A stretch of DNA of 35,848 nt from a candidate division WOR-3 bacterium (GTDB lineage: Bacteria; Hydrothermota; Tepidihabitantia; Tepidihabitantales; DTDR01), in assembly GCA_039801845.1 (NCBI GenBank), contig JBDRVL010000001.1, forward strand, positions 1 to 35,848, read 5' to 3'. This document shows positions 15,182-34,796 of this stretch, one piece after another. Each line of letters starts with the position of its first letter. Position 1 is the first letter of the stretch. Under the pieces are notes generated by a model. That model did not search any database and was not told the DNA's origin. It was given only the letters and a program-made list of their open reading frames with translations. Both the position numbers and the translations under genes were made by a program.

Positions 15182-16182
15182 TTGAAGAATTAGAAAAAAT
15201 TATTCAGGAAGCAGAAAAAGAATTTTCTTTAATAGATAATTTAACTGATTTAGAAAACTTCCGAATTAAATATCTGGGAAGAAAGGGTTTATTAACAACC
15301 TTTTTAAGAAAAATAAAAGATTTATCAATTGAAGAGAAAAGGAGCATTGGGAAAAGGGCTAACGAATTTAAGGAATATTTAGAGAAAATAATTGAAGAAA
15401 AAAAGGTTTCTTTAAAAGAAGAGAAAATAGAAATTTCTTTTGATTATACTTTACCAGGAAGGAAATTTTGGCTGGGGCATAAGCATCCAATAACCCAAGT
15501 GATGGAAGAATGTATTGATATTTTTGTGCGGATGGGTTTTAAAGAAGAACAAGGACCGGAAATAGAAGATGAATGGCACAATTTTACTGCTTTGAATATT
15601 CCGCCTTTACATCCGGCAAGGGATATGTTTTCCACATTTTATCTTCCGGATGGTAGATTATTAAGAAGTCATACTTCACCAGTTCAAATAAGAGTAATGG
15701 AAAGAGAGAAGCCACCGATAAGAATTATTGCTCCGGGAAGAGTCTTTCGGCCAGATGATTTTGATGCTTCCCATTCGCCGGTTTTTCACCAAATTGAAGG
15801 ACTTTATGTTGATACGGATGTTACTTTTTTAGAACTAAAAGCAACTTTAGAGGAATTTTGTCGAATTCTTTTTGGTAAGGAAGTGATTATAAAATTTACT
15901 CCTTCTTATTTTCCTTTTACTGAGCCAAGTGCCGAAGTTTCCATTTCTTGTTTAAATTGTTTGGGAAAAGGATGTGAGCGGTGTCGGAATAAAGGTTTTT
16001 TAGAAATCTTGGGTTGTGGAATGGTTCATCCGCAAGTTTTAAAAAATGTAAATATTGACCCAGAAATTTATAGTGGTTTTGCCTTCGGTTTAGGAGTAGA
16101 AAGATTAGCAATGATAAAATTTCAAATTGATGATATAAGACTTTTTTATCAGAATGATATTAGATTTTTATCCCAATTCTAA
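15178..16182 (+). CDS. pheS: phenylalanine--tRNA ligase alpha subunit
   Basis: 334 aa with class II motifs (HPARDMFSTFY, RSHTSPVQIR, FPFTEPSAEV, GFAFGLGVERLAM). TTG start overlapping the rplT stop (TTGA). Confidence 0.95.
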   Translation: MIEELEKIIQEAEKEFSLIDNLTDLENFRIKYLGRKGLLTTFLRKIKDLSIEEKRSIGKRANEFKEYLEKIIEEKKVSLKEEKIEISFDYTLPGRKFWLGHKHPITQVMEECIDIFVRMGFKEEQGPEIEDEWHNFTALNIPPLHPARDMFSTFYLPDGRLLRSHTSPVQIRVMEREKPPIRIIAPGRVFRPDDFDASHSPVFHQIEGLYVDTDVTFLELKATLEEFCRILFGKEVIIKFTPSYFPFTEPSAEVSISCLNCLGKGCERCRNKGFLEILGCGMVHPQVLKNVNIDPEIYSGFAFGLGVERLAMIKFQIDDIRLFYQNDIRFLSQF

Positions 16183-17057
16183 AATCCGTAAACAGTTTTT
16201 TTAATAAATTGGATATCTTTTCGCCAATTTTCTTTTACCTTTATCCAAAGTTCTAAATATATTTCTTTACCTAAAAAAGCCTCAATCCTTTTTCTTGCCA
16301 TTTCTCCTAATCTTTTAAGGGCTTTTCCGTCTTTGCCAATAATAATCTTTTTCTGGGATGGCTTCTCTACATAAATAGTTGCTCTAATATAATCCTTTCC
16401 CTTTTCCCTTTCTTTAAATTCTTCTACTTCAACAGTAGTGCAATAGGGAATTTCTTCGCCATAAAGATTAAAGATTGCTTCCCTAATAAATTCACTAACA
16501 AAAAATCTTTCGTTTTTTTCGCTAATCATATCCGGTTCATAATAGGGTTCTCCTTCTTTTAGATATTTAACAATTCCTTCTTTCAATTCTTCAATGCCAA
16601 TATTTTTTAAAGCCGAGATTGGATAGATTTCTAAAAATCCCATTTTATTATAAGTTTCAATTAAAGGTAAAATTAAATCTTTCTTTACTAAATCAACTTT
16701 ATTTATTACTACTAAAGAGGTTTTTTCCCTTTCTTTTATTTTTTCTATTATTTCCTTTTCTAAATCATCAGGCGGACCAAAAGGTTCGCAAACAAAAAGA
16801 GCAATATCACATGATTCTAAACTCTCCTCAATCTCTTTCACCATAAATTCCTGTAATAGGTATTTTGGTTTTAAAACTCCCGGAGTATCTAAAAAGATAA
16901 TTTGGTAATCTTTTTCGGAAAGAATACCTAAAATTTTATGGCGGGTTGTTTGGGGTTTTTGTGAGACTGCTGATAAAGGAGTATTTAATAAACGGTTTAA
17001 AAGTAAAGATTTACCAACATTTGGTTTACCAAAAATTCCACAATATCCTACTTTCAT
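16179..17057 (-). CDS. era: GTPase Era
   Basis: GKPNVGKSLLLN P-loop, DTPG and NKVD motifs, and a C-terminal KH domain (IIIGKDGKALKRLG). Confidence 0.95.
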   Translation of the reverse strand: MKVGYCGIFGKPNVGKSLLLNRLLNTPLSAVSQKPQTTRHKILGILSEKDYQIIFLDTPGVLKPKYLLQEFMVKEIEESLESCDIALFVCEPFGPPDDLEKEIIEKIKEREKTSLVVINKVDLVKKDLILPLIETYNKMGFLEIYPISALKNIGIEELKEGIVKYLKEGEPYYEPDMISEKNERFFVSEFIREAIFNLYGEEIPYCTTVEVEEFKEREKGKDYIRATIYVEKPSQKKIIIGKDGKALKRLGEMARKRIEAFLGKEIYLELWIKVKENWRKDIQFIKKTVYGF

Positions 17058-17980
17058 ATCCCCATTTTTCTAAATTTCTCAATCCGCTCATTTAGAATTT
17101 CCTCTTTTGAAAGTTTTATTATCGCTCTTAAATTTCTTAAAATTGCTTCTTTTAAAATTTTTGCTGCTTCTTCCCAATTTTGATGAGCGCCACCTAAAGG
17201 TTCTTTAACAATCTCATCAATAATACCAAATTCTAAAAGTTCATGGGCAGTTAGTTTAAGCATCTCCGCAGCCTTTTCTGCTTTAGAACCATCCCGCCAT
17301 AAAATAGAAGCACATCCTTCTGGTGAGATAACAGAATAAATGGCATTTTCCATCATTAATACCCGATTACCAATAGCAATTGCCAAAGCACCACCTGAGC
17401 CACCTTCGCCAATTATCACAACAATAATTGGAACAGTTAATAATGACATCTCTTTAATAGTTTCGGCAATTGCCTCAGCCTGTCCTCTTTCTTCCGCACC
17501 AATTCCTGGAAAGGCACCAGGTGTATCAATAAAACTAATTATTGGTAAGTTATATTTCTCGCCAAGTTTCATTATTCTTAATGCCTTACGATAACCTTCC
17601 GGATGGGGCATCCCAAAATTTCTTTTCAATTTCTCTTTTGTGTCTCTTCCTTTTTGATGACCAACAATTACACAACTAATATCTTCAATCTTTCCTAAGC
17701 CACCAATTATTGCCAAATCATCGCCAAATCTTCTATCACCATGAAGTTCAATAAAATCTTCGGTTATCCTTTCAATATAATCTAAAGTATAAGGTCTTTG
17801 GGGATGTCTTGCTAATAATACCCTTTGCCAAGGAGTGATTTTCTCAAAAATCTTTTTCTTAACTTTTATTAAGGCATTTTCCAATTTTCTTAATTTATCT
17901 TCGTTGCCATTTTTCTTTGCCTCTTCAATCTTTTCTATTAATTTCACAATTGGCTTCTCAAAATCTAAATATTCTTTCAT
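17054..17980 (-). CDS. accA: acetyl-CoA carboxylase carboxyltransferase alpha subunit
   Basis: 308 aa. LDFEKPI N-terminus, HPQRPYTLDY, FIDTPGAFPGIGAEERGQAEAIA and GEGGSGGALA motifs. Confidence 0.95.
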   Translation of the reverse strand: MKEYLDFEKPIVKLIEKIEEAKKNGNEDKLRKLENALIKVKKKIFEKITPWQRVLLARHPQRPYTLDYIERITEDFIELHGDRRFGDDLAIIGGLGKIEDISCVIVGHQKGRDTKEKLKRNFGMPHPEGYRKALRIMKLGEKYNLPIISFIDTPGAFPGIGAEERGQAEAIAETIKEMSLLTVPIIVVIIGEGGSGGALAIAIGNRVLMMENAIYSVISPEGCASILWRDGSKAEKAAEMLKLTAHELLEFGIIDEIVKEPLGGAHQNWEEAAKILKEAILRNLRAIIKLSKEEILNERIEKFRKMGI

Positions 17981-18810
17981 TTTATTTTTCCAAAAGTGAT
18001 ACCAAAATGATGAGAAGAAGGTAAGGATTTAAAAATTCGGTAGGCATAAGAGATTTTTAGAATTTTTTCTTTTAAAGGTTCTATTGAAAAACCAATATTA
18101 AAACTTCCATTATAAAAATTATAACCACTTTTTAAATCAATTATTGGATGGGGTTTCAATTCTAAACCCAATTTTAAATAATTCTCTTTTTCCCTTAAAT
18201 CTCGGCTAAATTCTAAGTAATTTTTTAAAAAATCTATCGGTGAAAGTTTTAAAGTTAAATTTAAATTGTTTGGCGGATAGAAATTTTGAGAGATATAATG
18301 TAAAGGTAAAGAGAAATTAGTAAAACTTATAGAACTTGTTAAGTATTTAATTGGTGAATAATCTACTCCCAAATCAAAACCGAAAGAATAATCGGAATAA
18401 ATATATAAGGTTGAATAATAAAATTTTAAAGAGAAACCAATATTAAAATTTTGAGAAATTTTTTTACTTGTTAAAAAAGAAATAATAAAATCCTCAGGAG
18501 AGTAATAACCCCAGAAATCAGAAGGAAATTTTCCCCTTCTTTCAATTCCACCATATTTAAAATTTACAATTTCTAACCCGTAATTAATTAAATTTGTTTC
18601 TCTTAAAAGAAGAAGAGAAATTTGAGAAGTTGATAAGAGATAAGAACTATAATTTGTTTCTATTAAAAAGTTTTTATAATTGGCATATTTGGCAGGATTA
18701 TGAGCAAGAGAGCCCAAAGAGATTTCCTCTAAAGTAATACCATTATTTAAAAAACTGAAAGCAAAAAGGAAATTTAATAATAAAAATTTAAACTTCAATA
18801 ATCTCAACAT
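17977..18810 (-). CDS. exported hypothetical protein, possibly an outer-membrane beta-barrel
   Basis: Signal-peptide-like N-terminus (LLLNFLFAFSF). The body is Tyr/Ser/Asn/Phe-rich with alternating strand-like segments. It has a weak NPA motif (LAHNPAKYA) reminiscent of PorV/PorP-type barrels. The family call is tentative. Confidence 0.4.
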   Translation of the reverse strand: MLRLLKFKFLLLNFLFAFSFLNNGITLEEISLGSLAHNPAKYANYKNFLIETNYSSYLLSTSQISLLLLRETNLINYGLEIVNFKYGGIERRGKFPSDFWGYYSPEDFIISFLTSKKISQNFNIGFSLKFYYSTLYIYSDYSFGFDLGVDYSPIKYLTSSISFTNFSLPLHYISQNFYPPNNLNLTLKLSPIDFLKNYLEFSRDLREKENYLKLGLELKPHPIIDLKSGYNFYNGSFNIGFSIEPLKEKILKISYAYRIFKSLPSSHHFGITFGKIK

Positions 18811-19918
18811 TTGCCCGTGGAATAATTACCCTTCTTTTATCTTCTAATTCTACTTCTAAAACCCTTACATAAGATTCGGTTTCAATCTTTTGTAATTCTA
18901 CTGGCAGAGAAACTACCTTGCCAATCATTCCAAAATAAGGTTCCCTTATTATTCTTACTGGAGTGCCAATTTCCAATCCTTGGGAATAGTTAAAAGAATT
19001 TTCTCTTTTACTTTTATTAACTCCATCTTTTTGGACGACAATCACTTCGGGTCTAATAACACCTGCTCGGATTTGGGTAGCACCATTTATAGAAGCGGTT
19101 TTGCCTTCCAATGATTTTAATAAAGAAAATGTTCTATCTGCCATTTTCATTCTGCCAAATCCTTCCGTAATTACCAAAGTTAAATTACAATTCTCTTGAC
19201 CAGTAATTGCGACACCAATATCATAACCAAGAAAATTTTTTATTGTCTCATCCTCAATGCCACCAACCACAATCCCTTTTACGCCAAATTCCCTTGCCTT
19301 CTTTAATGCCTCAGAGGTAACCAAAGAACCACCAACCAAAATTTTCCCTTTACAATCTTCATTAATATTCTCTTCGGTTAAAACTTCATTAGGATTAGAA
19401 GCAACTATTTTTAAAATTCCTCTTGTCTCACCACCAATACCAAAAATTCCTTGAACTAAACTAGCATAGGTTTCAATAATAACACCTTCCTTTTGAATAA
19501 TCTCTTTTACAACACCATCAATATAAGCACTAACTTGGACAGGTTGTGGTGGTTCACGGATAATAACTTGCCCAGTGATTTCTGAAATATTTTCAATCTT
19601 TCCTTTAACCGGACTTCTCACATAAGATTTAAAGAGACCAAAGAAACTTTTAGTATAGGCAATAACTTCATCTTTCTCAACTTCATCGCCTTCCTTCTTT
19701 ATCATTACTTCCCTTATATCTTCTGGTGGAATATTTAACAGACCAGCAACATTAACCGTCTGAACATTACCAGGAAGATAAGTTTTCGCAACAATATCCT
19801 CACCTTTAACTTCCTCACCAATTTTGACTAAAATCTCACCAGGTAAAGGAAGCCTTCTTTCCTTTCTAATTAAAGTGAAATCAGTTACTTTCAGCCCAGG
19901 AATATATGCATGAGCCAT
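18788..19918 (-). CDS. conserved-looking hypothetical protein (barrel-sandwich-hybrid-like N-terminus, KOW-like C-terminus)
   Basis: 376-aa ORF and first gene of the operon ending in accA-era. The N-terminal GEILVKIGEEVKGEDIVA resembles lipoyl/biotinyl-type hybrid barrels. The C-terminal GTPVRIIREPYFGMIGKVV resembles a KOW motif. I can assign no function. Confidence 0.45.
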   Translation of the reverse strand: MAHAYIPGLKVTDFTLIRKERRLPLPGEILVKIGEEVKGEDIVAKTYLPGNVQTVNVAGLLNIPPEDIREVMIKKEGDEVEKDEVIAYTKSFFGLFKSYVRSPVKGKIENISEITGQVIIREPPQPVQVSAYIDGVVKEIIQKEGVIIETYASLVQGIFGIGGETRGILKIVASNPNEVLTEENINEDCKGKILVGGSLVTSEALKKAREFGVKGIVVGGIEDETIKNFLGYDIGVAITGQENCNLTLVITEGFGRMKMADRTFSLLKSLEGKTASINGATQIRAGVIRPEVIVVQKDGVNKSKRENSFNYSQGLEIGTPVRIIREPYFGMIGKVVSLPVELQKIETESYVRVLEVELEDKRRVIIPRANVEIIEV

Positions 19919-19952: not shown

Positions 19953-20012
19953 CCTAAAAAGAAATACAAAAAAATGAGATATTTGTTAAGATTAAATTAT
20001 AAGAAGAAAAAA

Positions 20013-20029
20013 TTTGCATATCATGCAAA
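20013..20029. promoter_or_regulatory. perfect palindrome TTTGCAT-atc-ATGCAAA (possible operator)
   Basis: 7-bp perfect inverted arms with a 3-nt spacer. Lies in the 518-bp non-coding stretch at the left border of the island. Confidence 0.2.
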
Positions 20030-20095
20030 AAATTTTTAGACAGAAAAAATTTCTAAGTCCTTGTATTTCAAATACTTATTTAAAATTTGTGATAA

Positions 20096-20126
20096 AGATA
20101 GGGAGCGTCTCCCTCCTATCTTTTAT
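20096..20126 (+). terminator. GC-rich stem-loop followed by a T-run (terminator-like or structured RNA element)
   Basis: AGATA-GGGAG-cgt-CTCCC-(tcc bulge)-TATCT followed by TTTAT. The GGGAGCGTCTCCC core stands out in this AT-rich DNA. It lies inside the doubtful 90-aa ORF. Confidence 0.25.
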
Positions 20127-20376
20127 GTTCGTCTTAAGAAATATCCTAATCTTCGTCTTATTAATTATCTTTATGATGGACTTATGAGAGGTTTTATTGT
20201 TCTACTTGTGAAGGGTCTTATCAAAGGATCTGATAAGACTTTTATCGTTCATTTTCATAAGCATCTTGCTGTTAATTTGTCGAAGTATACTCCTGGCGAT
20301 AGTGGTAAGTCTTGGATGTTAAATCTTTTGTAAATATAAAATTGTTAATACATCTTAACATCTTTACTTTTTCTTC

Positions 20377-20405
20377 TTGACATTTCATAAATTTTTAAGT
20401 AATAT
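20377..20405 (+). promoter_or_regulatory. sigma70-like promoter of the TPR-CHAT gene
   Basis: TTGACA (20377..20382), 17 nt, TAATAT (20400..20405), with a 31-nt leader. Shares the 15-mer TTGACATTTCATAAA with the promoter at 23025. Confidence 0.45.
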
Positions 20406-20436
20406 TTAAACATTAGAAATTGAAAGAAAGGTTAAA

Positions 20437-23028
20437 ATGGATGAGTTATCAAAATTGGTTTTAGAGTTAGTTGATAAGTTTTCTGAGTCGGAAGATTTCA
20501 TTAAGGCGGTTGAGGATAAATATAGTCATATTTCAGAAAAGGAAAAGGGAGATTTATTTTTAGAAATTGGTATTCGGCTTTATAACTTCTCTTATTTTCG
20601 TTTGGCGATAGAGGTTTTAAATAAGGCACTTTCTTATTATTTTAAATATAAAGATAAGGCGGGCGAAGGTAAATGCTACACAAATCTTGGCGAGGCTTAT
20701 AGAAATCTTGGTGAATTTTATAAGTCGATAGAGTATCAAGAGAAGGCATTAGAGATATTTAAAGAGATAGGAGATAGGCGAGGAGAGGGTGATTGCTACA
20801 GAGGTCTTGGCAATGCCTATTTTTTTCTTGGTGATTTTTATAAATCAATAGAGTATCTAGAGAAGGCATTAGAGATATTTAAAGAGATAGGAGATAGGCG
20901 AGGAGAGGTTAAATGCTATATAGGTCTTGGTAATGCCTATAATTCGTTAGGTGAATTTGGTAAGTCGATAGAATTTTATAACAAGTCATTAGAGATACGT
21001 AAGACAATAGGAGATAGGCTGGGAGAGGGTGCTTGCTACACAAATCTTGGCACTGCCTATTATTCTCTTGGTGATTTTTATAAATCGATAGAGTATTATA
21101 ACAAGGCATTAGATATAGATAAAGAGATAGGATATAGGCAAGGAGAGAGTAAATGTTACAGAAATCTTGGCAATGCCTATCTTTCTCTTGGTGATTTTTA
21201 TAAATCGATAGAGTATTATAACAAGGCATTAGATATATCTAAGACAATAGGAGATAGGCGAGGAGAGGGTGCTTGCTACACAAATCTTGGCACTGCTTAT
21301 TATTTTCTTGGTGATTTTTATAAATCGATAGAGTATTATAACAAGGCATTAGATATATTTAAGGCGATAGGAGATAGGCTGGGAGAGGGTGCTTGCTACA
21401 TAAATCTTGGCGAGGTTTATAGAAATCTTGGTGAATTTTATAAATCGATAGAGTATCAAGAAAAGGCATTAGAGATATGCAAGGAAATAGGAGATATTTA
21501 TGGTGAAAAAATATGTCTTGATAACCTTGGCTGGATATATTTAGGAAAAGAAGATTATCTTAAAGCAGAGGAATATTTTGAAGAAGGTATTAAAAAATAT
21601 GAAGAGTTAACAAGAGATAAACTACCAAAAGACCCAAAAGAGAGGAAAGATTTTTTGAAGGGAAGCATTTCTCTTTTTGATGGTATGGTAATAACCCAAA
21701 TAAAATTAGGGAATAAAGAGAAGGCATTAGAATATTCGGAAATGGGAAAAGGAAGGACGATTTTAGATTTCATTATTTATAAAGGAATAGAGAAAGAAGA
21801 GGTTAAACAATCATTAAACTTTCAGAGGATAAAAGATTTAGCAAAGGAGATTGGAAGGACAATTCTCTTATTTAGGATTACTGAGAAAGGGAGTTATACA
21901 TTTATTATTAAACCAAGAGATGGTTTTGAATTTATAACTATTCCGGAATTTAATAGCAAAAGATTAGATGAGATAATGGTAAAGTATGAAGATAATAAGC
22001 CAGTGGATGGTTGGGTTTATAGATATTCTAAATATAAAAATATGGTCAGTAATTTTGTAAGGTTTGCTTTCGAGAGAGGAGAGAAGGAGGCAAAGGAAAT
22101 CTTGGAGAAGGAGAGAGATAATTGGTTTAACACCTTAAAGCCTTTATATGAGGAGTTATTGGCAGAGGTTTTTGAAGGTAAAATATTTGAGAAAGGTGAG
22201 AAGATTGTAATCATTCCCAATAAAGGGTTAAATATCTTGCCTATTCATGCCTGTCAAAAAGAGGATGGCAAGTATCTCATTGATGAGTATGAGATAACCT
22301 ATGCTCCCAACTGTTCTCTTTTGGATTTATGTTATCGAAGGGAGAAGGAAAGGAAAAGGGATAGTTTCTTTGCCATTGCTAATCCAACAGGCGACATTCC
22401 TTTTTCTGAGACAGAGGTAAAAGAGATTGAGAAATTATTCATTAATAAAGAGATACACAGAGAGAGGATAGTAAAAGATATTTTGCTGAATAATGTAGAT
22501 AAATATAATATAATTCATTTTTCAACGCATGGTACTTATCATTTAGGTTCTGCTTTTAATTCCCTTTTATATTTAGGGGTTAATGAGTATTTAACCCTTT
22601 CTGAGATTTTTGAGAAGGTGAAACTTCCCAATAGTTGGCTTGTTTCCCTTTCTGCTTGTGAGACTGCTTTAATTGATTATCGTGATATTGCTGATGAGAG
22701 TATTGGTTTACATACTGGTTTTCTCTATGCCGGAGCACCAACTGTGATTGCCACTCTTTGGACAGTTGCTGATATTTCAACTGCCTTAATTATGATAAGG
22801 ACCTATGACAATATATTTAATAAGAATATGGGTAAGGGAGAGGCATTAAGGAAAGCCCAGTTATGGTTAAAGGAGGCGACAAAGAAAGAATTAATAGATT
22901 GGGCAAAAGGGAAATCATCGTATATTTTAGGGTTATTAACAAGTTCTCTTTCTCTATTTAAGGATAATGATAAACCCTTTTCCCATCCTTATTACTGGTC
23001 GGGTTTCCAATGCTTTGGTACTCATTGA
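20437..23028 (+). CDS. TPR-repeat / CHAT-domain (caspase-fold) protease
   Basis: 863 aa. Residues about 76-355 are seven near-identical 40-aa TPR units (GEGxCYxNLGxAYxxLGDFYKSIEYxxKALxIxKxIGDRx) flanked by degenerate units. The C-terminal CHAT-like domain has HFSTHG (His698, nt 22528..22530), SLSACETA (Cys741, nt 22657..22659) and a terminal HPYYWSGFQCFG. Confidence 0.9.
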   Translation: MDELSKLVLELVDKFSESEDFIKAVEDKYSHISEKEKGDLFLEIGIRLYNFSYFRLAIEVLNKALSYYFKYKDKAGEGKCYTNLGEAYRNLGEFYKSIEYQEKALEIFKEIGDRRGEGDCYRGLGNAYFFLGDFYKSIEYLEKALEIFKEIGDRRGEVKCYIGLGNAYNSLGEFGKSIEFYNKSLEIRKTIGDRLGEGACYTNLGTAYYSLGDFYKSIEYYNKALDIDKEIGYRQGESKCYRNLGNAYLSLGDFYKSIEYYNKALDISKTIGDRRGEGACYTNLGTAYYFLGDFYKSIEYYNKALDIFKAIGDRLGEGACYINLGEVYRNLGEFYKSIEYQEKALEICKEIGDIYGEKICLDNLGWIYLGKEDYLKAEEYFEEGIKKYEELTRDKLPKDPKERKDFLKGSISLFDGMVITQIKLGNKEKALEYSEMGKGRTILDFIIYKGIEKEEVKQSLNFQRIKDLAKEIGRTILLFRITEKGSYTFIIKPRDGFEFITIPEFNSKRLDEIMVKYEDNKPVDGWVYRYSKYKNMVSNFVRFAFERGEKEAKEILEKERDNWFNTLKPLYEELLAEVFEGKIFEKGEKIVIIPNKGLNILPIHACQKEDGKYLIDEYEITYAPNCSLLDLCYRREKERKRDSFFAIANPTGDIPFSETEVKEIEKLFINKEIHRERIVKDILLNNVDKYNIIHFSTHGTYHLGSAFNSLLYLGVNEYLTLSEIFEKVKLPNSWLVSLSACETALIDYRDIADESIGLHTGFLYAGAPTVIATLWTVADISTALIMIRTYDNIFNKNMGKGEALRKAQLWLKEATKKELIDWAKGKSSYILGLLTSSLSLFKDNDKPFSHPYYWSGFQCFGTH
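20662..21501 (+). repeat. intragenic tandem repeat, 7 x 120 bp (TPR units)
   Basis: Exact 120-bp periodicity. A 52-nt block is identical at 21066..21117, 21186..21237 and 21306..21357. Units 1 and 7 resemble each other closely, as do units 4 and 6. Confidence 0.9.
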
Positions 23029-23052
23029 CATTTCATAAAATTGGTTTATAAT
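23025..23052 (+). promoter_or_regulatory. sigma70-like promoter of the three downstream cassette genes
   Basis: TTGACA (23025..23030, overlapping the TPR-CHAT TGA stop at 23026..23028), 16 nt, TATAAT (23047..23052). A 20-nt leader with GGAGG follows. Confidence 0.45.
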
Positions 23053-23072
23053 TTTTTAAATGGAGGAAAATT

Positions 23073-23525
23073 ATGAAAAAGAAATTATATTGTCCAAAAG
23101 ATGGAAGTTTGTTAGAAGAGATTAAAGTTGGAAAGACAGTTGTTGACCAATGTCCTAAATGTCAAGGTGTTTGGTTTGATTTTAAAGGCGACGAACTTAT
23201 CAAAATTCTTGCGTTGGGATATGATAATTTACCGGAAAAATTGAAAGAGAGTTGGGAAGAAGGAGGTGGACAACTAACATTAACTGAAAATAGAGAATAT
23301 AAATGTCCCCGCTGTGGCAATGAACTTTCTACTTATTGGTATCTTGGAGAAAAAGATAGAACTTTTCTTGTTGATGGCTGTTTAAAAGGGTGCGGAGTCT
23401 GGCTTGATGATGGAGAATTAAAAAAGGCTTATCAATTTATAAAACCTTCTGTATCAGAGATAAAAGAAAAAGAAATAAAAGAGGGAATTTTTAAAAAGTT
23501 ATGGAATTATTTGAGAGAAAGATAA
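23073..23525 (+). CDS. tandem zf-TFIIB-like zinc-ribbon protein
   Basis: 150 aa with two copies of the pattern CPxC...L......vDxCxxCxGvWxDxgEL. Copy 1 is CPKDG...DQCPKCQGVWFDFKGDEL, with a degenerate first knuckle. Copy 2 is CPRCGNEL...VDGCLKGCGVWLDDGELKKA. Strong GGAGG RBS. Confidence 0.7.
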   Translation: MKKKLYCPKDGSLLEEIKVGKTVVDQCPKCQGVWFDFKGDELIKILALGYDNLPEKLKESWEEGGGQLTLTENREYKCPRCGNELSTYWYLGEKDRTFLVDGCLKGCGVWLDDGELKKAYQFIKPSVSEIKEKEIKEGIFKKLWNYLRER

Positions 23526-23536
23526 AAGGAGGAAAA

Positions 23537-23917
23537 ATGGATACAGAAATGGTTGTGTATTTGTTAGAAGAGAGGTTAGAAGAAATAAAGAAGAATCTCG
23601 CTGATTTCTGGCAAGAATTTCTCAAGGAATTGAAGAGCCTTTCGGAGGATTTAATTGCTGATAAAAAAGACTTAGAAAAATGGACGGAAAATATGATTCG
23701 GCTTCTTAAAAAATATGAATATACTTGTGGTCTTTTAGAAGGGTTTAATACGAGAATCCGTTTTATCATAAGGGGAATACCAAGCGCATTAGAAACTTAT
23801 CAGCCTGAGGAGATTCCTGATATTCCCAGTGGCAAAATTTCTGCTTCAAAAAAATATGAAGAAGAAATTGTTAACCGAATAAAGAATATCGTTAAAAAAG
23901 CCGAGGAATTAAAATAA
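23537..23917 (+). CDS. small helical hypothetical protein (about 126 aa)
   Basis: The ATG at 23537 lies 5 nt after AAGGAGG. The ORF track's 23501 start overlaps the previous gene and lacks an RBS. The sequence is charged and heptad-like (LEERLEEIKKNLADFWQEFLKELKSL). I recognise no family. Confidence 0.55.
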   Translation: MDTEMVVYLLEERLEEIKKNLADFWQEFLKELKSLSEDLIADKKDLEKWTENMIRLLKKYEYTCGLLEGFNTRIRFIIRGIPSALETYQPEEIPDIPSGKISASKKYEEEIVNRIKNIVKKAEELK

Positions 23918-23926
23918 AATTAAAAA

Positions 23927-25231
23927 GTGCTCATTAAAGACCCAACCTTATATCAATTTATTTTTCTTTTTCGTTGGCATTCATTGGAAAAAAAAGAGGA
24001 ATTTGAATGGCATAAAGAAGCAATCAGAAATTTCTTTTTAGAAGCTTGGGAAAAAGTAGGTCCGAAAGCACCGTTTCCGGAGGCAGAGGTAGATAAATTT
24101 TTAAACGAAACAGAGAATTTTCTTTTTGCCCACGAAAAAATCGAAAATTTATTTAAGGATATTCGGATATTGAATTCGGGAGTAAAAAGCGGCGATCAAC
24201 CAAATTTAAAATTAGAATTGGAAATTCGTGCTTACGATGATGCTGTCCGAATAGAAATTAGTTATCTTTTAGAAGGAGAATATCCTCCCAATTCTTTTTT
24301 AATAATAAAAAACGAACTTTTAGATACAAGCAAATTGAAGAAAGAGCCGAGTGGTCGTCACGTTTATATTGGTGAAACCTATTATCCAGCATTCCAAATT
24401 GAAAAGTGCGAAGAGCAAGAAGCAAGAAAAATTGCCTCAGAAATTATGAAATATCTTAGTTATCCAGAAGACGAATTTAATATTCTGGAATTTAATTGGG
24501 GGTATTTAGCCATCAACCAAAGTAAGAAAGAGAATCCGATAATTCTTTATTGGGATGAGAATGAAAATAAATGGTTGATAGCTAAACTTGTCCATAAGAT
24601 TTTTTCTTTTCTCTTTTTAAATCGTTACAAATTCTTTTATATTCTAAAATCTTATTTTGACTTACAAGATAAACTTAATAGAGAAGAGCGGGAGATAAAT
24701 GATTTATGTATTCGGGCTTTAAAAGAGGTGGAACTAAAAAGAAGTGAAAAAGATATTAATATTTTAAAAAGGATGGAAGCAAGTACTGTAGAATTAAGCC
24801 AAGTTCTTACCGGTTATGTTCAAAATCTTGCCATCCTTAAAGGATATATAAAAGAGGTTGAAGTTTTATTAGAAGGAATAGAGAAACTTTTAGGAGAGAG
24901 TTCTTTGCGAGAGAAAAATAATTCTTTGGTTGATTTTTGGACGAAAGATATAAAATCTACCAAAGAACAATTAAATACGAATTTAAATTTCTATTGGCTG
25001 ACAAAAGAAACCGGCGATTCTACCTTAGATTTTCTTTATAAAATAGCCGAAATAAGAGATAGTCAATGGGATAGATTTACTAATTTTTTAGTCGGAATTC
25101 TTTCCGCTTGGGCAATCCTTGATGTATTTGAAGCCAACCTATCCTGGTGGATAAGAATTATTCTATTGTTTATACTTGCTCCTGCTTTCTATTTTCTTTT
25201 GCCAAAACTTCGTATCTGGTTAAAAATGTAG
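23927..25231 (+). CDS. hypothetical protein with coiled-coil middle and C-terminal two-TM hairpin (candidate membrane effector)
   Basis: 434 aa, with a GTG start 9 nt after the previous stop (start uncertain). The last 52 aa (nt 25073..25228) contain two hydrophobic helices, FLVGILSAWAILDVF and WWIRIILLFILAPAFYFLLP. I recognise no family. Confidence 0.55.
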   Translation: MLIKDPTLYQFIFLFRWHSLEKKEEFEWHKEAIRNFFLEAWEKVGPKAPFPEAEVDKFLNETENFLFAHEKIENLFKDIRILNSGVKSGDQPNLKLELEIRAYDDAVRIEISYLLEGEYPPNSFLIIKNELLDTSKLKKEPSGRHVYIGETYYPAFQIEKCEEQEARKIASEIMKYLSYPEDEFNILEFNWGYLAINQSKKENPIILYWDENENKWLIAKLVHKIFSFLFLNRYKFFYILKSYFDLQDKLNREEREINDLCIRALKEVELKRSEKDINILKRMEASTVELSQVLTGYVQNLAILKGYIKEVEVLLEGIEKLLGESSLREKNNSLVDFWTKDIKSTKEQLNTNLNFYWLTKETGDSTLDFLYKIAEIRDSQWDRFTNFLVGILSAWAILDVFEANLSWWIRIILLFILAPAFYFLLPKLRIWLKM

Positions 25232-25237
25232 GTATTA

Positions 25238-25269
25238 TCAATATCGTAATTTTACTCAATATCGTAATT

Positions 25270-25273
<4 letters not shown>
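25238..25273. repeat. perfect 18-bp tandem duplication (TCAATATCGTAATTTTAC x2)
   Basis: The copies lie at 25238..25255 and 25256..25273. They sit in the 38-bp convergent gap, and the second copy includes the purM stop codon plus 1 nt. Confidence 0.9.
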
Positions 25274-26236
<963 letters not shown>

Positions 26237-26247
<11 letters not shown>

Positions 26248-27985
26248 TAGCAGTTATTTTGTGAGTTATCGCTTTTAAAAATTTGATAAGTTTATTATAA
26301 TCCCAGGTGTTGATAACATCTTCTTTTTCAAGCCATCCTCTTCTTGCAATACCGACGCCAAATCGCATCCATTCTAAATCTCTAACAGCATGGGCATCGG
26401 TATTGATGGCAATTTTTATTCCCATTGATTTTGCTTTTCTTAAATGTAATTCGTCTAAATCAAGTCTATCTGGATAGGCATTGAGTTCTAAAACCTTATT
26501 ATATTTTTGAGCATATTCTAAAACCTTTTCAATATCAACCTCATATCCTTCTCTCTTAGAAATCAATCTTCCTTGAGGATGGGCAATGATATGGACATAA
26601 GGATTTTTAATTGCTTCAATTAATCTTTCAGTAACCTTCTTTTTAAACCCTTGATGAATAGCAGCAACCACAATATCACATTCCTTTAATATTTCATCAG
26701 AAAAGTCTAAGCCTCCATCCGGTAGAATATCTACTTCAATTCCTTTTAAGATTTTTATATCTTTATATTTTTTAGATAATTTATCTATCTCCTCCCATTG
26801 TTTTTTTAATCTTTCTTCATCTAAGCCATGGGCATATTTAGCGAATTTAGAATGGTCGGTTATTGCAATATATTGATAACCAATTTTTCGGCAGGCATTT
26901 ACCATTGTTTCTAACTCATCCAAACCATCGGAATAAGTAGTATGAATTTGGAAGTCTCCTTTTATATCTTTTAATTCAATTAATTTTGGCAATTGTCCTT
27001 TTTGGGCTGCTTCAATTTCGCCACGGTCTTCTCTTAACTCCGGCGGAATCCAAACCAAACCAATTGCTTTATATACCTCTTCTTCAGTTCTACCAGCAAT
27101 CATTTTATCTCCTTTAAATACGCCATATTCAGAAATTTTTAATCCTTTATCTTTGGCAATACTTCTTAGTTTAATATTATGGGCTTTTGAACCAGTAAAA
27201 TATTGTAGGGCAGCACCATAGGATTCTTCCGGTACAATTCTTATATCTACCTGTCTTGCTTCTTTACCTTCACCAATCATTACTGATGCCTTTGTTTCGC
27301 CAGCAGCAAGAATTCTTGATACTTTTGGATACTTGGTAAAATATTCAATTATTTCTTCTCTATCTTTATCGTCACAGGTGACAAGAATATCAATATCACC
27401 AATTGTCTCTTTCCATCTTCTTAAAGAGCCTGATGGGCAAACTTCTTTTACTTTTTTATTTTTCTTTAAATATTCAACAACATTTTCGGCAATTTCTAAA
27501 GCGGTATCAATTGGTATTCTTGCTTGTGATTGTTCATATAACTCAATACCTTTTTTAATATTTTCAACCTTTTTCTCACCCATTCTAAATAATTTTGCCA
27601 ATGAGCCATCTTCAATCACTCTTTTTAGGTCTTCTAAATTTTTTACACCAAGTTCTTTATGTGCTAAAGCCAATGTTTTTGGACCAAGATTTTGGATTGA
27701 TAGAAGTTCTAATAACCCTTCAGGAATTCCTTCTAAGGCTTCTTCATACTTTTTCATTTTACCGGTTTCCAAATATTCCTTAATCTTTTTTTCAATCCCT
27801 TCGCCAATTCCTGGTATTGAACGTAATTTCCCTTTTTTATAAAGTTCTTCAATATCTTCGGTTAATTCTTCCAATACCCTTGCTGCTTTCCGGTAGGCAA
27901 TAACTTTGAATTGTAACTCACCCTTATATTCTAAGGCATCAGCAATGGTGTCAAAAATTTTTGCCAATTCTTTATTTTTGCTCAT
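26237..27985 (-). CDS. polX: family X DNA polymerase with C-terminal PHP domain (PolX)
   Basis: 582 aa. The N-terminal 8-kDa/HhH part carries IADALEYKG...FKVIAYRKAA...IPGIGEGI. A GDIDIL nucleotidyltransferase motif is present. The PHP domain carries DFQIHTTYSDG and INTDAH. Confidence 0.9.
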
Positions 27986-28196
27986 AACATTCCCAATTAT
28001 TATTTGGCAATTTAGTTATCTTATAATATTTTTGATTACAGAAACATAAGAAAATAGTCTTTCTTTCTCGGGTTTTAAAATCTTCCACAATCTCTTTATA
28101 TAAAATTTTTTCAATGAGAAATTCTTTGCCATCAATTAAAATTGCCCTTGGTCTTTCTTCTCCTTTATAACCAGAATAAATTTTTACTTCCAGCAT
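27972..28196 (-). CDS. small hypothetical protein (74 aa)
   Basis: Sits co-directionally between two genes and overlaps the polX start by 14 nt. I recognise no family, so coding status is uncertain. Confidence 0.35.
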   Translation of the reverse strand: MLEVKIYSGYKGEERPRAILIDGKEFLIEKILYKEIVEDFKTRERKTIFLCFCNQKYYKITKLPNNNWECYEQK

Positions 28197-28204
28197 TAAT
28201 TTGT

Positions 28205-30268
28205 TTATCTGATGAAAAGGATTTTTCTTGCATCCTTTCTATCCTTGGAGATGATAAAATAAATACCCGGTTTAACTTTTTCTTTATTTAACTTTTTCCC
28301 TAAGGGATCAAAGATTGAATAATCTTTTTCTAAATAAATTAACTCTTTTTTAAAAAAGACTGTTTTCGTATTTTTACTAAAAATTGGCTTAAATTTATTT
28401 TCCTCTATTCCAATTGGTCTTTCTCGATAAGAATAAAATAGGGTTGTTTTATTTCCCAGAATAAAGAAGAAGGTTTGGAAATCAGGAACATAAACCATTG
28501 AACTTCCTTTTGTTTTATTTATTGGTAATGAGTCAATGAGATACCAACTATCTCCTTGGGTATATTGCCAGAATTGGGGAGTCCCCCCTTTTAGACAATA
28601 AATTTTACCATCTTTATAAGCAAGGGCAGTGCCGTTTTTTGGTTTTTTCTTTTTGCTACTATTTGGTGGTGCATCGGGAAGAGAGGATAATTGGACAAAA
28701 GAATCGGTAAAGATATTATATTTATAAAAATCACCATATTTTCCTTTTAAAATATAAATATTATATCTACCATCATAGGCTAAACAACTTCCTTCGTCCA
28801 TTGGTTTACCACTGGGATTTGTTGGAGTATTATTTCTTTTTATCCAAGTATCCCGTTCAATATGATAGGAATATAAATTGTTAGTCTTGGAACCGTAAAG
28901 GAGATAGATAAAACTGGAATCTAATTTTTTCACATAAACCATATCACAACCACTTTTTAATTTTGCCTCTTTTTGCGAAGGATATTTAAAACCATAAGGA
29001 ACATCCTTTTTTCTTTCCCATTTTCTTTGGGAAATATCATATCGCCAGAATTCCAAAGTATTACCACCTTTGATGAGATAGATATAATTAGAATTATCGC
29101 TTACTAAGGCGCACCCTTTTTTTACTTTCTTTTTCTTTTCTCCACCGGGAATAGTTTCTAATTTTTGCCAGTTATCACTTAAAATATCATAAAGAATAAA
29201 ATTATTGGTTTTACTACCAGTTATCGCATAAATAAATCTCGGAGGTAAGTAAGTCATATCGCTTCCATCTTTAATCGGTTTCTCAGCAATCAAATCCTTT
29301 CTTTTTTTCCATCCTGGTTCAGGAAGACTGTAAGTAAAAATTGTATCATAATAGACAATTATTGGATTACGGTCATTTGTTATAAGCGAACAGATTACTG
29401 GATGGATACCAGAAGTTAAAGTAATATTTTCAAAAATAACTGTGTCATAAGCAGGATAATAAATAGCGGAAGAAAGATGACCACTTCTTCGAAAGGTATT
29501 TTCACCGATTTTAATTGTTAAAAGATAATCTCGGGAGAAGAAGGAATCATTTCTCGTGATAACTTTTAGATTAAAAGGCACCTCGGCAAAAATTGTTTCC
29601 GGTGTAATTTTTTCAATATAAAAATAATAAGGAGTAAAAGTATCAATAAGATTAATAGTATCTTTAATTTTATTAGAAATCGTCCAGATATAAGGTCCAA
29701 AATAATTAGTATCCCAAACAGTTGTTAATGTTTGATATTTTAAAAAATCTCCTTCCCTTCGCCAAACTTTAATTACTAAAGTATCATAAGGTTGAATTTC
29801 TAATGACTTTAGATTTAAAGCATAATAGTTCCAAAGATTACCTTGTTGCGGAGTTAATTGGCAAGAATCAATTATAAACTTGTTATTTCTTTTTAAATAG
29901 GCTTTCATATAAGCAATTGGTGATAGAGGTTCATAAGGCAGAATATTAGAGATAATAAAAGTTACCGCATTGGGATAGATATCAAATATTAAATTACTTT
30001 CACTTTTTCTAAAATTTTTAATCCGAAAACTTAATGTTTCCTGAAAATTAGAAAGAATGCCAATCGTCTCTCCTAAAACATCGGCAAAAAATTGATATCG
30101 GGCAAAACCATTACCTAATCTAAAAATTTCGGCATAAATTGTGTCAGGAGTATTTTGGGTATATACTTTGATTGTTTCGATTTCTACCTCTGGTTCAATA
30201 CGAACAAAACCAATCATCAATTGAGAAAAAGCAAAGGGAGCAATAAATAAAATAATCAAATATCTCAT
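28205..30268 (-). CDS. secreted Kelch-like beta-propeller protein with T9SS-type C-terminal sorting tail
   Basis: Signal peptide MRYLIILFIAPFAFSQ. At least five Kelch-like blades (for example IYLIKGGNTLEFWRYDISQRKWERKKDVP and IYILKGKYGDFYKYNIFTDSFVQLSSLP). The C-terminal PGIYFIISKDRKDARKILFIR resembles Por/T9SS type A sorting domains. Confidence 0.55.
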   Translation of the reverse strand: MRYLIILFIAPFAFSQLMIGFVRIEPEVEIETIKVYTQNTPDTIYAEIFRLGNGFARYQFFADVLGETIGILSNFQETLSFRIKNFRKSESNLIFDIYPNAVTFIISNILPYEPLSPIAYMKAYLKRNNKFIIDSCQLTPQQGNLWNYYALNLKSLEIQPYDTLVIKVWRREGDFLKYQTLTTVWDTNYFGPYIWTISNKIKDTINLIDTFTPYYFYIEKITPETIFAEVPFNLKVITRNDSFFSRDYLLTIKIGENTFRRSGHLSSAIYYPAYDTVIFENITLTSGIHPVICSLITNDRNPIIVYYDTIFTYSLPEPGWKKRKDLIAEKPIKDGSDMTYLPPRFIYAITGSKTNNFILYDILSDNWQKLETIPGGEKKKKVKKGCALVSDNSNYIYLIKGGNTLEFWRYDISQRKWERKKDVPYGFKYPSQKEAKLKSGCDMVYVKKLDSSFIYLLYGSKTNNLYSYHIERDTWIKRNNTPTNPSGKPMDEGSCLAYDGRYNIYILKGKYGDFYKYNIFTDSFVQLSSLPDAPPNSSKKKKPKNGTALAYKDGKIYCLKGGTPQFWQYTQGDSWYLIDSLPINKTKGSSMVYVPDFQTFFFILGNKTTLFYSYRERPIGIEENKFKPIFSKNTKTVFFKKELIYLEKDYSIFDPLGKKLNKEKVKPGIYFIISKDRKDARKILFIR

Positions 30269-30275
30269 TTAATTA

Positions 30276-30304
30276 ATTATGAATATATTTTTTTAAAAAA
30301 TCAA
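30276..30304 (-). promoter_or_regulatory. sigma70-like promoter of the Kelch-like gene operon, positioned for a leaderless transcript
   Basis: Minus strand reads TTGATT (rc of 30299..30304), 17 nt, CATAAT (rc of 30276..30281), 7 nt, ATG (30268). Confidence 0.3.
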
Positions 30305-30312
30305 TATTAAAA

Positions 30313-31437
30313 TTAGGTAATTTTGTATTGATAAACCCGATATTTTTTATAAAGTTTAACTCCCCAGGTTTCTATCGGTCTAATTATTTCGATATTATCC
30401 TCTAAAATCCAAGATACTTCTCCCCATTCATAACCAAGTTTTTTACCACCTAAAAAGGTTTCGTAGTAAAGTAAGGCATCAACTCCGATTTTTCTATATT
30501 TCTTTTTTACTCCCAATGCCCAAAGTCGACCACTTTTAATCTTTCTTTGATAATATAAAAATTTAAAAATCCCAAAGGGGAAAAGTTTACCATTGAGATG
30601 AATTAAAACTTCATTATAATTAGGTAGAGCAATACTTATTCCGGCTGGTTCACCATCTATTTCAACAATGGGAATTATTTCGCTTTTGGCAATCGGTTTT
30701 AATTTCTTTCCTAAATAATTGATTTCTTCATCAGTTAGGGGAGTAAAATCCCAATTTTCTTGCCAGGCATCATTATATATTTCTTTTATCTTTCTTAATT
30801 CGACATCTAATATTTTTAAGTTTACATTTCTCACTTGGAATCTTTCTTTCTTTTTTAATTTTTCAATTAGGTTGGCAATTTTTTGAGGCACAAATTGGTC
30901 TAAATTAATATAATAGGCATATAAATCCTTTGCCTTCTCCATTCCGTATCTTTCAGCAAATTCTAAATAATAAGGAGGATTATAGGACATCTTTATAACT
31001 GGCGGAGAATCAAATCCTTCATAAAGAAAAGCACATTCATCGTTTAAAGCCGGGTTGGCTGGACCAACCATCAGTTCCATTCCTTTTGATTTTAACCATT
31101 CTTTGACAGTATCAAATAAAGCACAGGCTACATCAAAATTGTTTACTACTTCAAAGAAACCAAAAAAACCAACATTTTTTTTATGATGGTTGATATAATT
31201 ATAATCAATAATACCAGCAATTCTACCAACTATCTCGTTTTTAAAATAGGCTAAAAAAAGTTCAATATCAGCATGGCGGAAATAGGGATTTTTATTTTTA
31301 GAGACAGTTTCTTTCACATCACTAATAAGAGGCGGAACAAAATTCTTATCACCTTGGTAAATTTTAAAAGGTAATTTTGCAAATAAATCTAAATCATTTT
31401 TATTTTTAACCTTTTCAATTTTTATTAATTCTCTCAT
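30313..31437 (-). CDS. GNAT-like N-acyltransferase (374 aa), function unknown
   Basis: Size and pattern fit the long GNAT-family proteins (C-terminal RKIGVDALLYYE resembles acyl-CoA-binding motif A, R/Q-x-x-G-x-G/A). The ATGA overlap indicates translational coupling to the upstream SPT-like gene. The family call is moderate. Confidence 0.5.
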   Translation of the reverse strand: MRELIKIEKVKNKNDLDLFAKLPFKIYQGDKNFVPPLISDVKETVSKNKNPYFRHADIELFLAYFKNEIVGRIAGIIDYNYINHHKKNVGFFGFFEVVNNFDVACALFDTVKEWLKSKGMELMVGPANPALNDECAFLYEGFDSPPVIKMSYNPPYYLEFAERYGMEKAKDLYAYYINLDQFVPQKIANLIEKLKKKERFQVRNVNLKILDVELRKIKEIYNDAWQENWDFTPLTDEEINYLGKKLKPIAKSEIIPIVEIDGEPAGISIALPNYNEVLIHLNGKLFPFGIFKFLYYQRKIKSGRLWALGVKKKYRKIGVDALLYYETFLGGKKLGYEWGEVSWILEDNIEIIRPIETWGVKLYKKYRVYQYKIT

Positions 31438-32609: not shown

Positions 32610-32612
32610 AGT

Positions 32613-34031: not shown

Positions 34032-34034
34032 ATT

Positions 34035-34796
34035 TTAAAAGATACGTAAAATTTTTAAATTGTCAATAAGAAGAAGAATAAAAAGAAAAAAGAGATAATA
34101 ACTAAAATAATAAAACTTTCTCTTGATTACTAAATATTTTAAGAAATAAAGGGCAAAAAGTCCAAAAAGAAAAGAAGAAAGAAACCCAAAAAAATAAGGA
34201 AGAGTGAATAAGAGGGAAGTATTTTTATAAAATTCTAAAACATTGGCACCGATAATTGTTGGCAGTCCTAAGAGAAAAGAGAAATAAAATCCTTCTTCTT
34301 TTTTAATTCCTAAATATAAAGCACCAGCAATCGTTGAGCCTGAACGAGAAATTCCCGGAAAAATTCCCAAGGTTTGAAAAATTCCGATAACTAAGGATTG
34401 AAAATAATTAATTGAAAAAAATTTTTCTTTGGTATATTTGGTAAAAAATATTAAGAGACTGCTTATTAAAAAGAAATAGGGCAGGAAATAAAAATTAGAA
34501 AAAGTCTTTTCAATAATATTTTGAAAAGGTAATACGATTATTATAATGGGGATTAAAGCAATAATAATTTTTAATAAAAGAAAATAATTTTTATTTTTTA
34601 TTTCTTTTTTAATTAAGCTAAAAAGGAAAAAGATTAATGAAAAAGTTGTTCCTAAATGGAGATAAAGAATAAAAGGGATATCCGGGTTTAATTTCAAAAT
34701 TTTTTGAAATATTAATAAATGACCGGAACTGGAGATGGGAAGAAATTCAGTCAATCCTTGTAAGGCGCCTAAAAAAATTGCTTTGAAAATATCCAT
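34035..34796 (-). CDS. uppP: undecaprenyl-diphosphate phosphatase
   Basis: 253 aa and polytopic. Has the BacA motifs LTEFLPISSSGHL and PGISRSGSTI. Confidence 0.9.
   Translation of the reverse strand: MDIFKAIFLGALQGLTEFLPISSSGHLLIFQKILKLNPDIPFILYLHLGTTFSLIFFLFSLIKKEIKNKNYFLLLKIIIALIPIIIIVLPFQNIIEKTFSNFYFLPYFFLISSLLIFFTKYTKEKFFSINYFQSLVIGIFQTLGIFPGISRSGSTIAGALYLGIKKEEGFYFSFLLGLPTIIGANVLEFYKNTSLLFTLPYFFGFLSSFLFGLFALYFLKYLVIKRKFYYFSYYLFFLFILLLIDNLKILRIF

Follow-up and report, generated by a model that had tools for sequence, protein, structure and literature searches.

Bacterial and animal immunity share the theme of a caspase-like protease coupled to a membrane killer. To our knowledge, almost no such coupling has been tested beyond the gasdermins and Craspase. 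In PMC8195603 and PMC12657218, which cite the 2020 prediction by Burroughs and Aravind, CATRA, short for 'caspase and TPR repeat-associated', denotes predicted ternary conflict systems, the third component of which is a variable effector domain, for example GT4 (PMC8195603). Here we analysed a cassette of four genes, g1 to g4, in a 35.8-kb stretch of DNA from an uncultured hot-spring bacterium of candidate division WOR-3 (contig JBDRVL010000001.1, 35,848 nucleotides; this whole stretch is referred to as the window). The genes encode an active-looking TPR-CHAT protease, as judged from its sequence (g1), a double Zn-ribbon protein (g2), a small helical protein (g3) and a protein with a predicted two-transmembrane (two-TM) hairpin (g4). 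The cassette is a real, conserved system. It is like CATRA in that a CHAT/caspase protease fused to TPRs, here g1, lies beside a dedicated partner of ~400 residues, and also in its restricted, patchy distribution across lineages. The original prediction, made for this DNA from its letters alone, mentioned CATRA families as an example of catalogued conflict systems and could match the partner set to no nameable system. We find that CATRA is the closest described class, reached through a consensus of the g4 family, and that the cassette is best read as a membrane-anchored, divergent variant of this predicted class rather than as categorically new, because the consensus exceeds the CATRA-C cut-off and aligns collinearly, at a score below cut-off, with the BN6_48550 model.

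Family relationships and conserved synteny

The g4 protein itself matches no model in Pfam (none at E<1), NCBIfam or PADLOC, and among 5.8 billion clustered proteins it has only five close relatives, at 96-45% identity (5 clusters at 90% identity). A profile built from these six sequences and searched against 1.84 billion representatives (50% identity) collected 94 proteins, 44 of them with E<=1e-10. Nearly all are 400-450 residues long, all are named 'hypothetical', and in a hydropathy scan almost every full-length member closes with a pair of hydrophobic helices. Word-indexed searches with a 42-sequence alignment and with the family protein P0021 gave almost no further homologues, and tblastn of the family consensus against plasmids returned nothing.

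The consensus of 76 full-length members matched Pfam CATRA-C (PF20270) with a score of 27.7 bits (E 5e-06; gathering score 24.6) over profile positions 28-137 of 137; a consensus does not correspond to any actual protein, and the matching stretch is helix-rich. The same consensus could be aligned over residues 30-346, including the N-domain, collinearly with positions 24-343 of the 344 in the NCBIfam profile BN6_48550_fam (E 5.3e-07), at 29.4 bits and thus well below the cut-off of 90. The BN6_48550 family (NF038357) is probably a CATRA-class model. Individual members matched CATRA-C weakly (nine of 97, best 2.8e-4), and it was the only family matched repeatedly. P0021, with a match at 7.2e-3, came from the second sampled batch, the first batch of ten having given none. 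CATRA-C was not matched by g4 itself, by the consensus of its close clade or by that of a second subfamily (A7), and CATRA-N was matched by neither g4, the family members nor the consensus sequences. These alignments support a placement of the g4 family as a distant, currently unrecognised CATRA/BN6_48550 branch, the support lying at the level of family profiles and not of the window protein. Overall, profile searches of the partners yielded the Zn-ribbon of g2 and the consensus match to CATRA-C but nothing for g3 or g4 themselves, g3 being likewise assigned to no family in Pfam, NCBIfam or PADLOC.

The order g1-(g2)-g3-g4 is conserved in all five close clusters and, since it recurs in independent assemblies, cannot be put down to chance. 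Over 11.5 kb the sequence shares 95% identity with a contig from a metagenome-assembled genome (MAG) of candidate division WOR-3. The cassette is followed by purM in the window and by a tRNA synthetase gene in L003 (relatives' loci are given L numbers), which is from another WOR-3 MAG; the different 3' neighbours indicate that the cassette occupies different chromosomal sites in related WOR-3 MAGs. The original prediction had named linkage of the partners to CHAT genes elsewhere as a point on which it could fail, and the conserved synteny bears this linkage out. One contig, L020 (CALHIP010000017.1), with 69-75% nucleotide identity to the window, is labelled 'uncultured Patescibacteria group bacterium' and is probably mis-binned. 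In two independent assemblies, L004 (4126-4449) and L005 (4090-4260), the N-terminus of a second TPR-CHAT protein begins 42 nt past the g4 homologue and the contigs end within the TPR repeats, an arrangement that could reflect a tandem duplication of the cassette, a break in the assembly or a small element, circular and ~4.4 kb long.

For the wider contexts we took seven distant g4 members and thirty loci from a metagenome scan and annotated them with custom hidden Markov models (HMMs) and Pfam. In every locus with enough upstream sequence, ~45 in all and down to ~20% identity, a g3 homologue lies directly 5' of the g4 homologue; these loci belong to Bacteroidota, Calditrichota, KSB1, Cloacimonetes or Acidobacteriota or come from hot-spring metagenomes. 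The g3 homologues are 115-160 residues long, usually overlap the g4 gene and score HMM E-values of 2e-13 to 6e-3; four that the HMM missed were recovered via tblastn. g3 and g4 are an invariant pair. The large neighbouring gene almost always encodes a TPR protein, usually a TPR-CHAT of the g1 type, and g1-type proteins are found even beside g4 homologues of ~20% identity (L010, L021, L026 and L029). In L038, L040 and L047 the neighbouring TPR proteins are cut by the contig end. Elsewhere the neighbour is a STAND NTPase-TPR (L027) or a Ser/Thr kinase-TPR (L013, L015), and L017 is an exception, in which a histidine kinase stands with a receiver protein and a REC-CHAT. The four genes, which had been taken as one partner set, are therefore linked but unequal: g3-g4 is invariant, g2 is a clade accessory and CHAT is replaceable. 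DUF1598 proteins together with TPR-Ser/Thr kinases recur near g3-g4 pairs in two unrelated Bacteroidota-like loci (L013 1305-2615, L015 12578-13344), and may point to a larger form of the system, of the kinase type. Type I restriction-modification genes and STAND NTPases are neighbours of some relatives.

Among plasmid sequences, the nearest relatives of the g1 CHAT domain come from cyanobacteria. On the conjugative plasmid pC052_C of Nostoc sp. C052 (L055; NZ_CP040275.1, 62490-67944), a cultured cyanobacterium, a g1-like CHAT gene of 1163 codons is followed by genes for 'hypothetical' proteins of 111 and 507 residues, all three between IS630 and IS110 transposases. The 507-residue protein is a two-TM relative of g4 (hhalign probability 94.9%, E 4.5e-8; 39 bits with the local HMM), and the 111-residue protein has no detectable similarity to g3.

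Predicted structures, gene layout and flanks

An AlphaFold2 model of g4 based on the 42-sequence alignment reached a predicted local distance difference test (pLDDT) score of 91.3 and a predicted TM-score of 0.83, compared with a pLDDT of 71 for a six-sequence model. It consists of an alpha/beta N-domain (residues 1-209), helices 212-269 and 276-324, a 73-residue helix (328-400) that continues into TM1, and TM2 (407-433). The N-domain and C-terminal two-TM hairpin anticipated for g4 are recovered by the model and the hydropathy scan, and its proposed role as membrane effector is plausible. Foldseek searches of the PDB returned CorA/Mrs2 proteins as 13 of the 14 top matches, mostly with probabilities of 0.75-0.99. 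The model is confident, but these matches are weak (best E 7.5e-3, TM-score 0.27-0.35), as is the best match in BFVD. Because the GMN motif is absent and the Foldseek scores are weak, the resemblance of the g4 model to CorA is one of architecture and not established homology. Residues conserved in the family are D5, D105, K235, E284, Q348, R383, W407 and R/K410. R383 is found in 73 of 76 members, and a polar residue at 399, F401 and W407 are followed by R/K after TM2. The outer end of TM1 reads LDVFEANLSWW in g4 (F-E-A-N-L-S), the family pattern being polar residue-x-F-P-E (Q-x-F-P-E). The basic residues after TM2 suggest that both termini of g4 are cytoplasmic. Profile searches of PDB sequences with g4 and g3 produced nothing meaningful, only coiled-coil noise.

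In the family alignment, the N-terminal helical part of g3 carries the pattern LLE..L..I...LG..W..F followed by Y.YT.GLL.GF, and the C-terminal part is a helix. An invariant basic residue, R79 in the window, opens the linker, which reads R-G-I-P-S, R-L-L-S-S or R-S-V-S-S. With its conserved basic-x-x-x-Ser pattern and exposed position, this linker would be a reasonable target for a CHAT protease or a basophilic kinase. In hot-spring metagenome variants (L040 1395-1874, L042, L044 and L045) the linker unit RLSQSPAQTLTDEQ is tandemly duplicated, so that the candidate modification site is repeated. We set aside, as coiled-coil or compositional noise, matches of g3 to an ISL3 transposase (1.4e-4, below cut-off) and to the ZorA tail (PADLOC 2.8e-3, NCBIfam 5.5e-3). 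Among PDB sequences, the g3 profile also gave marginal matches to the death domain of RIPK1 (E ~0.05), spanning window positions 23555-23734 (g3 residues 7-66). These are intriguing beside a caspase-like protease but are not significant; no Pfam death-like model matches g3, and we treat them as noise, retained as a lead only.

For g1, Pfam gives matches only to TPR-type domains (TPR_12, 9.7e-73) and CHAT (2.3e-49), and no hydrophobic N-terminal segment was apparent by eye. The dyad expected from the first reading of the DNA is intact, with His698 within HFSTHG and Cys741 within SACET, and the dyad motifs are retained in the g1 homologues of L004, L006, L008, L010 and L021. The TPR array, also foreseen, is very regular, with the differences between units clustered at a few recurring positions. 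The closest solved relatives of the CHAT domain are the Csx29 TPR-CHAT proteins (E 5e-11), and g1 is 31% identical (E 8e-104) to the TPR-CHAT protein of L010 that adjoins a distant g4 homologue.

g2 is a tandem of two Zn_ribbon_TFIIB (PF13453) stretches (Pfam 8.7e-17), in agreement with the double zinc ribbon proposed at the outset. Its first zinc knuckle (residues 7-10, window 23091-23102) is CPKD in the window and L008 and CPKC in L003 and L004. The gene is present in L003, L004, L005 and L008 and in none of the distant loci; in the L006/L020 lineage it has been deleted, leaving a remnant open reading frame (ORF) of 34 codons (L006 2740-2800) and the internal promoter-like site. g2 is accordingly an accessory confined to the WOR-3 clade, and may serve as an adaptor, an extra sensor or an extra substrate. 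Neither g2 nor g3 has a recognisable effector domain in Pfam, NCBIfam or PADLOC, and the sole effector-like feature of the cassette is the g4 hairpin.

Table 1. Positions of the cassette genes, their domains and promoter-like sites in the window
Feature	Coordinates	Strand	Basis or remark
g1, TPR-CHAT caspase-like protease, predicted cytoplasmic, 863 aa	20437..23028	+	Pfam TPR_12 and CHAT
g2, double Zn-ribbon (PF13453) protein, 150 aa	23073..23525	+	Pfam, two stretches; clade-specific accessory
g3, helical protein, 126 aa, invariant partner of g4	23537..23917	+	Homologues directly 5' of g4 homologues
g4, predicted two-TM membrane protein, 434 aa, GTG start	23927..25231	+	Family and AlphaFold2 model
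g4 C-terminal two-TM hairpin, residues 384-431	25076..25219	+	Family hydropathy scan, column conservation
g1 array of regular TPRs, seven units of 120 nt (40 aa each)	20652..21496	+	81% DNA matches
g1 CHAT domain, residues 567-861	22135..23019	+	His698 at 22528-22530, Cys741 at 22657-22659
P1 promoter-like site 5' of g1, TTGACA-17-TAATAT	20377..20405	+	10/12 consensus positions
P2 internal promoter-like site, perfect TTGACA-16-TATAAT	23025..23052	+	12/12 consensus positions; overlaps g1 stop codon

The ORF layout is that of the original prediction, with four co-directional genes separated by gaps of 44, 11 and 9 nt (g1/g2, g2/g3 and g3/g4) and housekeeping genes of opposite orientation on both sides. 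For g3, a longer alternative ORF of 138 codons starts at 23501; the start given in Table 1 is favoured because of a strong Shine-Dalgarno sequence, AAAGGAGG, and because all homologues agree. The g4 N-terminus, (M)LIKDPTLYQ, is kept among homologues. The g4 start codon is ATG in L003 and L004, but in the window, L008 and L006 it is GTG or TTG and no Shine-Dalgarno sequence precedes it, as would fit a dangerous product that is expressed at a low level. Two promoters had been proposed for the cassette. Both sites, which are sigma-70-like, are present, but across this AT-rich region promoter-like sites number 25, against 24 expected by chance. P2 is kept in all five diverged sequences aligned (window, L003, L004, L006 and L008 listed) and P1 in the L020 alignment, and because of this conservation we regard both as credible, if putative, promoters despite the chance-level count.

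All genes in the flanks, 16179-19918 and 25270-35792, lie on the minus strand. The left flank holds era, accA and two genes without assignment, and the right flank purM, PolX and a Kelch-repeat protein. The two unassigned genes (17977-19918, minus strand) encode a 277-residue protein with a signal-peptide-like N-terminus and a 376-residue protein; for neither did Pfam return a family at E<=1e-5. L020 has the start of the 376-residue gene at its left edge, so the left neighbour is the same there. The stops of g4 and purM converge, and the 38 nt that separate them hold a perfect 18-nt direct repeat, TCAATATCGTAATTTTAC, in 2.1 copies (25238-25275). A conserved non-coding element of ~200 nt is found at window 20010-20215 (plus strand), at ~100-330 in L020/L006 and at 3982-4194 in L008. 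It occurs once in the window, where it lies 5' of g1 as it does in L020, but in L008 it lies 3' of the g4 homologue; it contains a terminator-like hairpin, AGGGAGCGTCTCCCT, with a T run at 20100-20124; candidate roles are a cassette boundary, a small RNA or a leader. Neither the window as a whole nor the region 5' of g1 matched Rfam, and with a fold z-score of -0.41 a non-coding RNA partner is unsupported.

Proposed mechanism and rival explanations

From the gene content, active-site residues, conserved synteny, family relationships and predicted fold, which the analysis shows, we infer the biochemical steps, the direction of signalling and the defence role set out below. The reading that we tentatively favour, and to which we give somewhat less than an even chance, is a protease-triggered form of abortive infection. 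The TPR array would dock on the g3-g4 module and/or bind a trigger, for example a phage protein, and docking or trigger would switch the CHAT protease on. The protease would then cut a partner, most likely g3 at the exposed linker beside R79, or else g4 or g2. The cut would free a g4 oligomer to open or insert, the membrane potential would be lost as g4 depolarises the membrane, and the infected cell would be arrested. In related lineages a Ser/Thr kinase or STAND NTPase linked to TPRs would take the place of the protease on the same g3-g4 module.

Counted in favour of this reading are the intact His698/Cys741 dyad, the synteny, the family-wide two-TM hairpin, the confident AlphaFold2 model with CorA/Mrs2 as its top Foldseek matches and the consensus alignments with CATRA-C and, below cut-off, BN6_48550_fam, together with the varied insertion sites, the restriction-modification and STAND neighbours, the GTG or TTG starts of g4 and the Nostoc plasmid copy flanked by insertion sequences (IS). 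A number of points weigh against it. The exchange of CHAT for kinases or NTPases fits a signalling module equally well as an effector module, and it weakens the original picture of the downstream proteins as protease substrates. The cassette contains no classical toxic domain, no PADLOC model matches the system, no g4 relative was found in viral contigs, and no experiment on this cassette or on any CATRA system appears in the searchable literature. Moreover, the CATRA link comes from a consensus and weak individual matches in a helix-rich region, the match to CorA is weak, and the cassette, which sits between housekeeping genes, does not differ from its flanks in base composition.

A bolder proposal, which we consider doubtful, is that g3-g4 forms an unrecognised immune membrane module, in which an oligomeric CorA-like channel or pore is restrained by g3 and opened through post-translational modification by interchangeable TPR-docked enzymes, a caspase-like protease here and Ser/Thr kinases or STAND NTPases in other phyla. 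If true, it would be a death effector in the form of an ion channel gated by a protease, working by a mechanism unlike that of gasdermins or of nucleotide-gated CorA, and would provide a first mechanism for the CATRA class.

We think it unlikely that the polarity is reversed, with g3-g4 acting as a membrane sensor or tripwire for a membrane or ion disturbance or a phage protein, the TPR array as its guard and the enzyme as the output; this enzyme, CHAT here and a kinase or STAND NTPase elsewhere, would cleave or modify cellular or phage targets, possibly including g2. Across lineages g3-g4 and the TPRs stay constant and the enzymatic head varies, and it is usually the output that occupies the variable position in conflict systems. 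The STAND NTPase-TPR of L027 could not chemically modify g3 or g4 via its NTPase, and could be activated by binding; CHAT proteases can also be effectors themselves, as in the Craspase literature. However, CHAT, kinase and NTPase are signalling domains and not typical toxins, and the cassette offers no other effector candidate. Two-TM proteins often serve as the terminal effectors of CBASS, Pycsar and type III CRISPR systems.

Less probable still is a physiological, non-immune role, in which g4 would be a regulated CorA-like channel or envelope-stress transducer tuned by g3 and the TPR-linked enzymes. Such a role would suit the housekeeping neighbours, the normal composition and the lack of mobile-element marks in the window, and also the occurrence of relatives near chemotaxis-type genes, histidine kinases, response regulators and Ser/Thr kinases; ion channels are moreover the best structural matches. 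It does not sit well with the very patchy distribution (5 clusters among 5.8 billion proteins, and 94 representatives of the wider family), with insertion sites that differ between related MAGs or with the missing GMN selectivity motif. The IS-flanked copy on a conjugative plasmid, the copies near restriction-modification and STAND genes, and a regular, recently homogenised TPR array of the kind typical of diversifying receptors also speak against it. Finally, it is very improbable that g1 is simply one of many stand-alone TPR-CHAT proteins that happens to lie here: many such genes on cyanobacterial and Chloroflexota plasmids lack these partners, but the idea is contradicted by synteny over deep divergence, by the co-occurrence of the g1 and g4 families, by the short gaps or overlaps and by the conserved internal promoter-like site.

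The cassette is compact and apparently complete, and its two-gene core, g3 and g4, is unannotated in every database consulted. The confident model of g4 points to a predicted channel-like effector, and candidate residues can be named in g1 (His698, Cys741) and in the g3 linker (Arg79). The related cassette on pC052_C provides a possible experimental model in a cultured organism, Nostoc sp. C052. The swap of protease, kinase and NTPase on one TPR scaffold suggests a single membrane module read by several signalling chemistries, a design that, if confirmed, would generalise how such systems are built.

Comparison with known systems

The Craspase of type III-E CRISPR (Cas7-11/gRAMP, Csx29, Csx30, Csx31 and RpoE) resembles the cassette in having a TPR-CHAT protease, which in Craspase cuts a co-encoded partner and so triggers the response. 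The Csx29 model of NCBIfam (NF041237) matches g1 at 9.2e-24 and 84.3 bits, far under its 300-bit cut-off, and the order of the TPRs differs, g1 having N-terminal, regular TPR_12 repeats. The 35.8-kb window contains neither Cas7-11 nor a CRISPR array: no ORF exceeds 863 codons, and spaced repeat arrays are absent. Among the neighbours scanned, none was a sigma factor gene. For Csx30 and Csx31, g3 and g4 gave no NCBIfam match, nor a meaningful one among PDB sequences, where Csx30 would be expected if deposited. An association of the cassette with CRISPR is ruled out by the absence of a cas gene and a repeat array from the window. Model and repeat searches thus agree with the original observation that cas genes, a gasdermin and a nuclease are missing, and the same holds for a CRISPR array.

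Bacterial gasdermins, which are activated by caspase-like or CHAT proteases encoded beside them, follow the same logic, a protease gene beside a membrane-acting protein that would be released by cleavage. No gasdermin was found with Pfam or PADLOC, nor a gasdermin fold by Foldseek of the g4 model. Gasdermins are beta-barrel pore-formers with an inhibitory C-terminal peptide, whereas g4 is predicted to be an integral two-TM protein with an all-helical membrane part.

Like CorA/Mrs2, g4 is predicted to place a cytoplasmic alpha/beta domain and long helices before a stalk helix that runs into TM1, followed by a short outer loop and TM2. Unlike CorA, it has no Pfam CorA match and no GMN motif. CRISPR-associated CorA effectors activated by SAM-AMP are a precedent for CorA-type immune membrane effectors (PMC10600005); the g4 cassette differs from them in having no synthase for a nucleotide signal.

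DdvA of Myxococcus, a TPR-CHAT transmembrane anti-sigma factor tied to phage defence for which autoproteolysis in a flexible linker has been proposed (PMC11506125), likewise couples a TPR-CHAT module to the membrane. In DdvA, a periplasmic TPR-CHAT and a zinc-binding anti-sigma domain are on one polypeptide, and the partner is an extracytoplasmic function sigma factor (PMC11506125). In g1, by contrast, Pfam shows no anti-sigma domain and the sequence no evident TM segment, and a sigma factor is missing from the neighbours scanned.

Compared with CATRA itself, the cassette departs in that g4 and its clade escape every current model, with no match to CATRA-N, and in that no third 'effector' domain such as GT4 is recognisable. 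In its place the cassette has an invariant helical g3, a predicted two-TM hairpin on a CATRA-like protein and, in one clade, a Zn-ribbon gene, and in some of its relatives a kinase or a STAND NTPase takes the place of CHAT.

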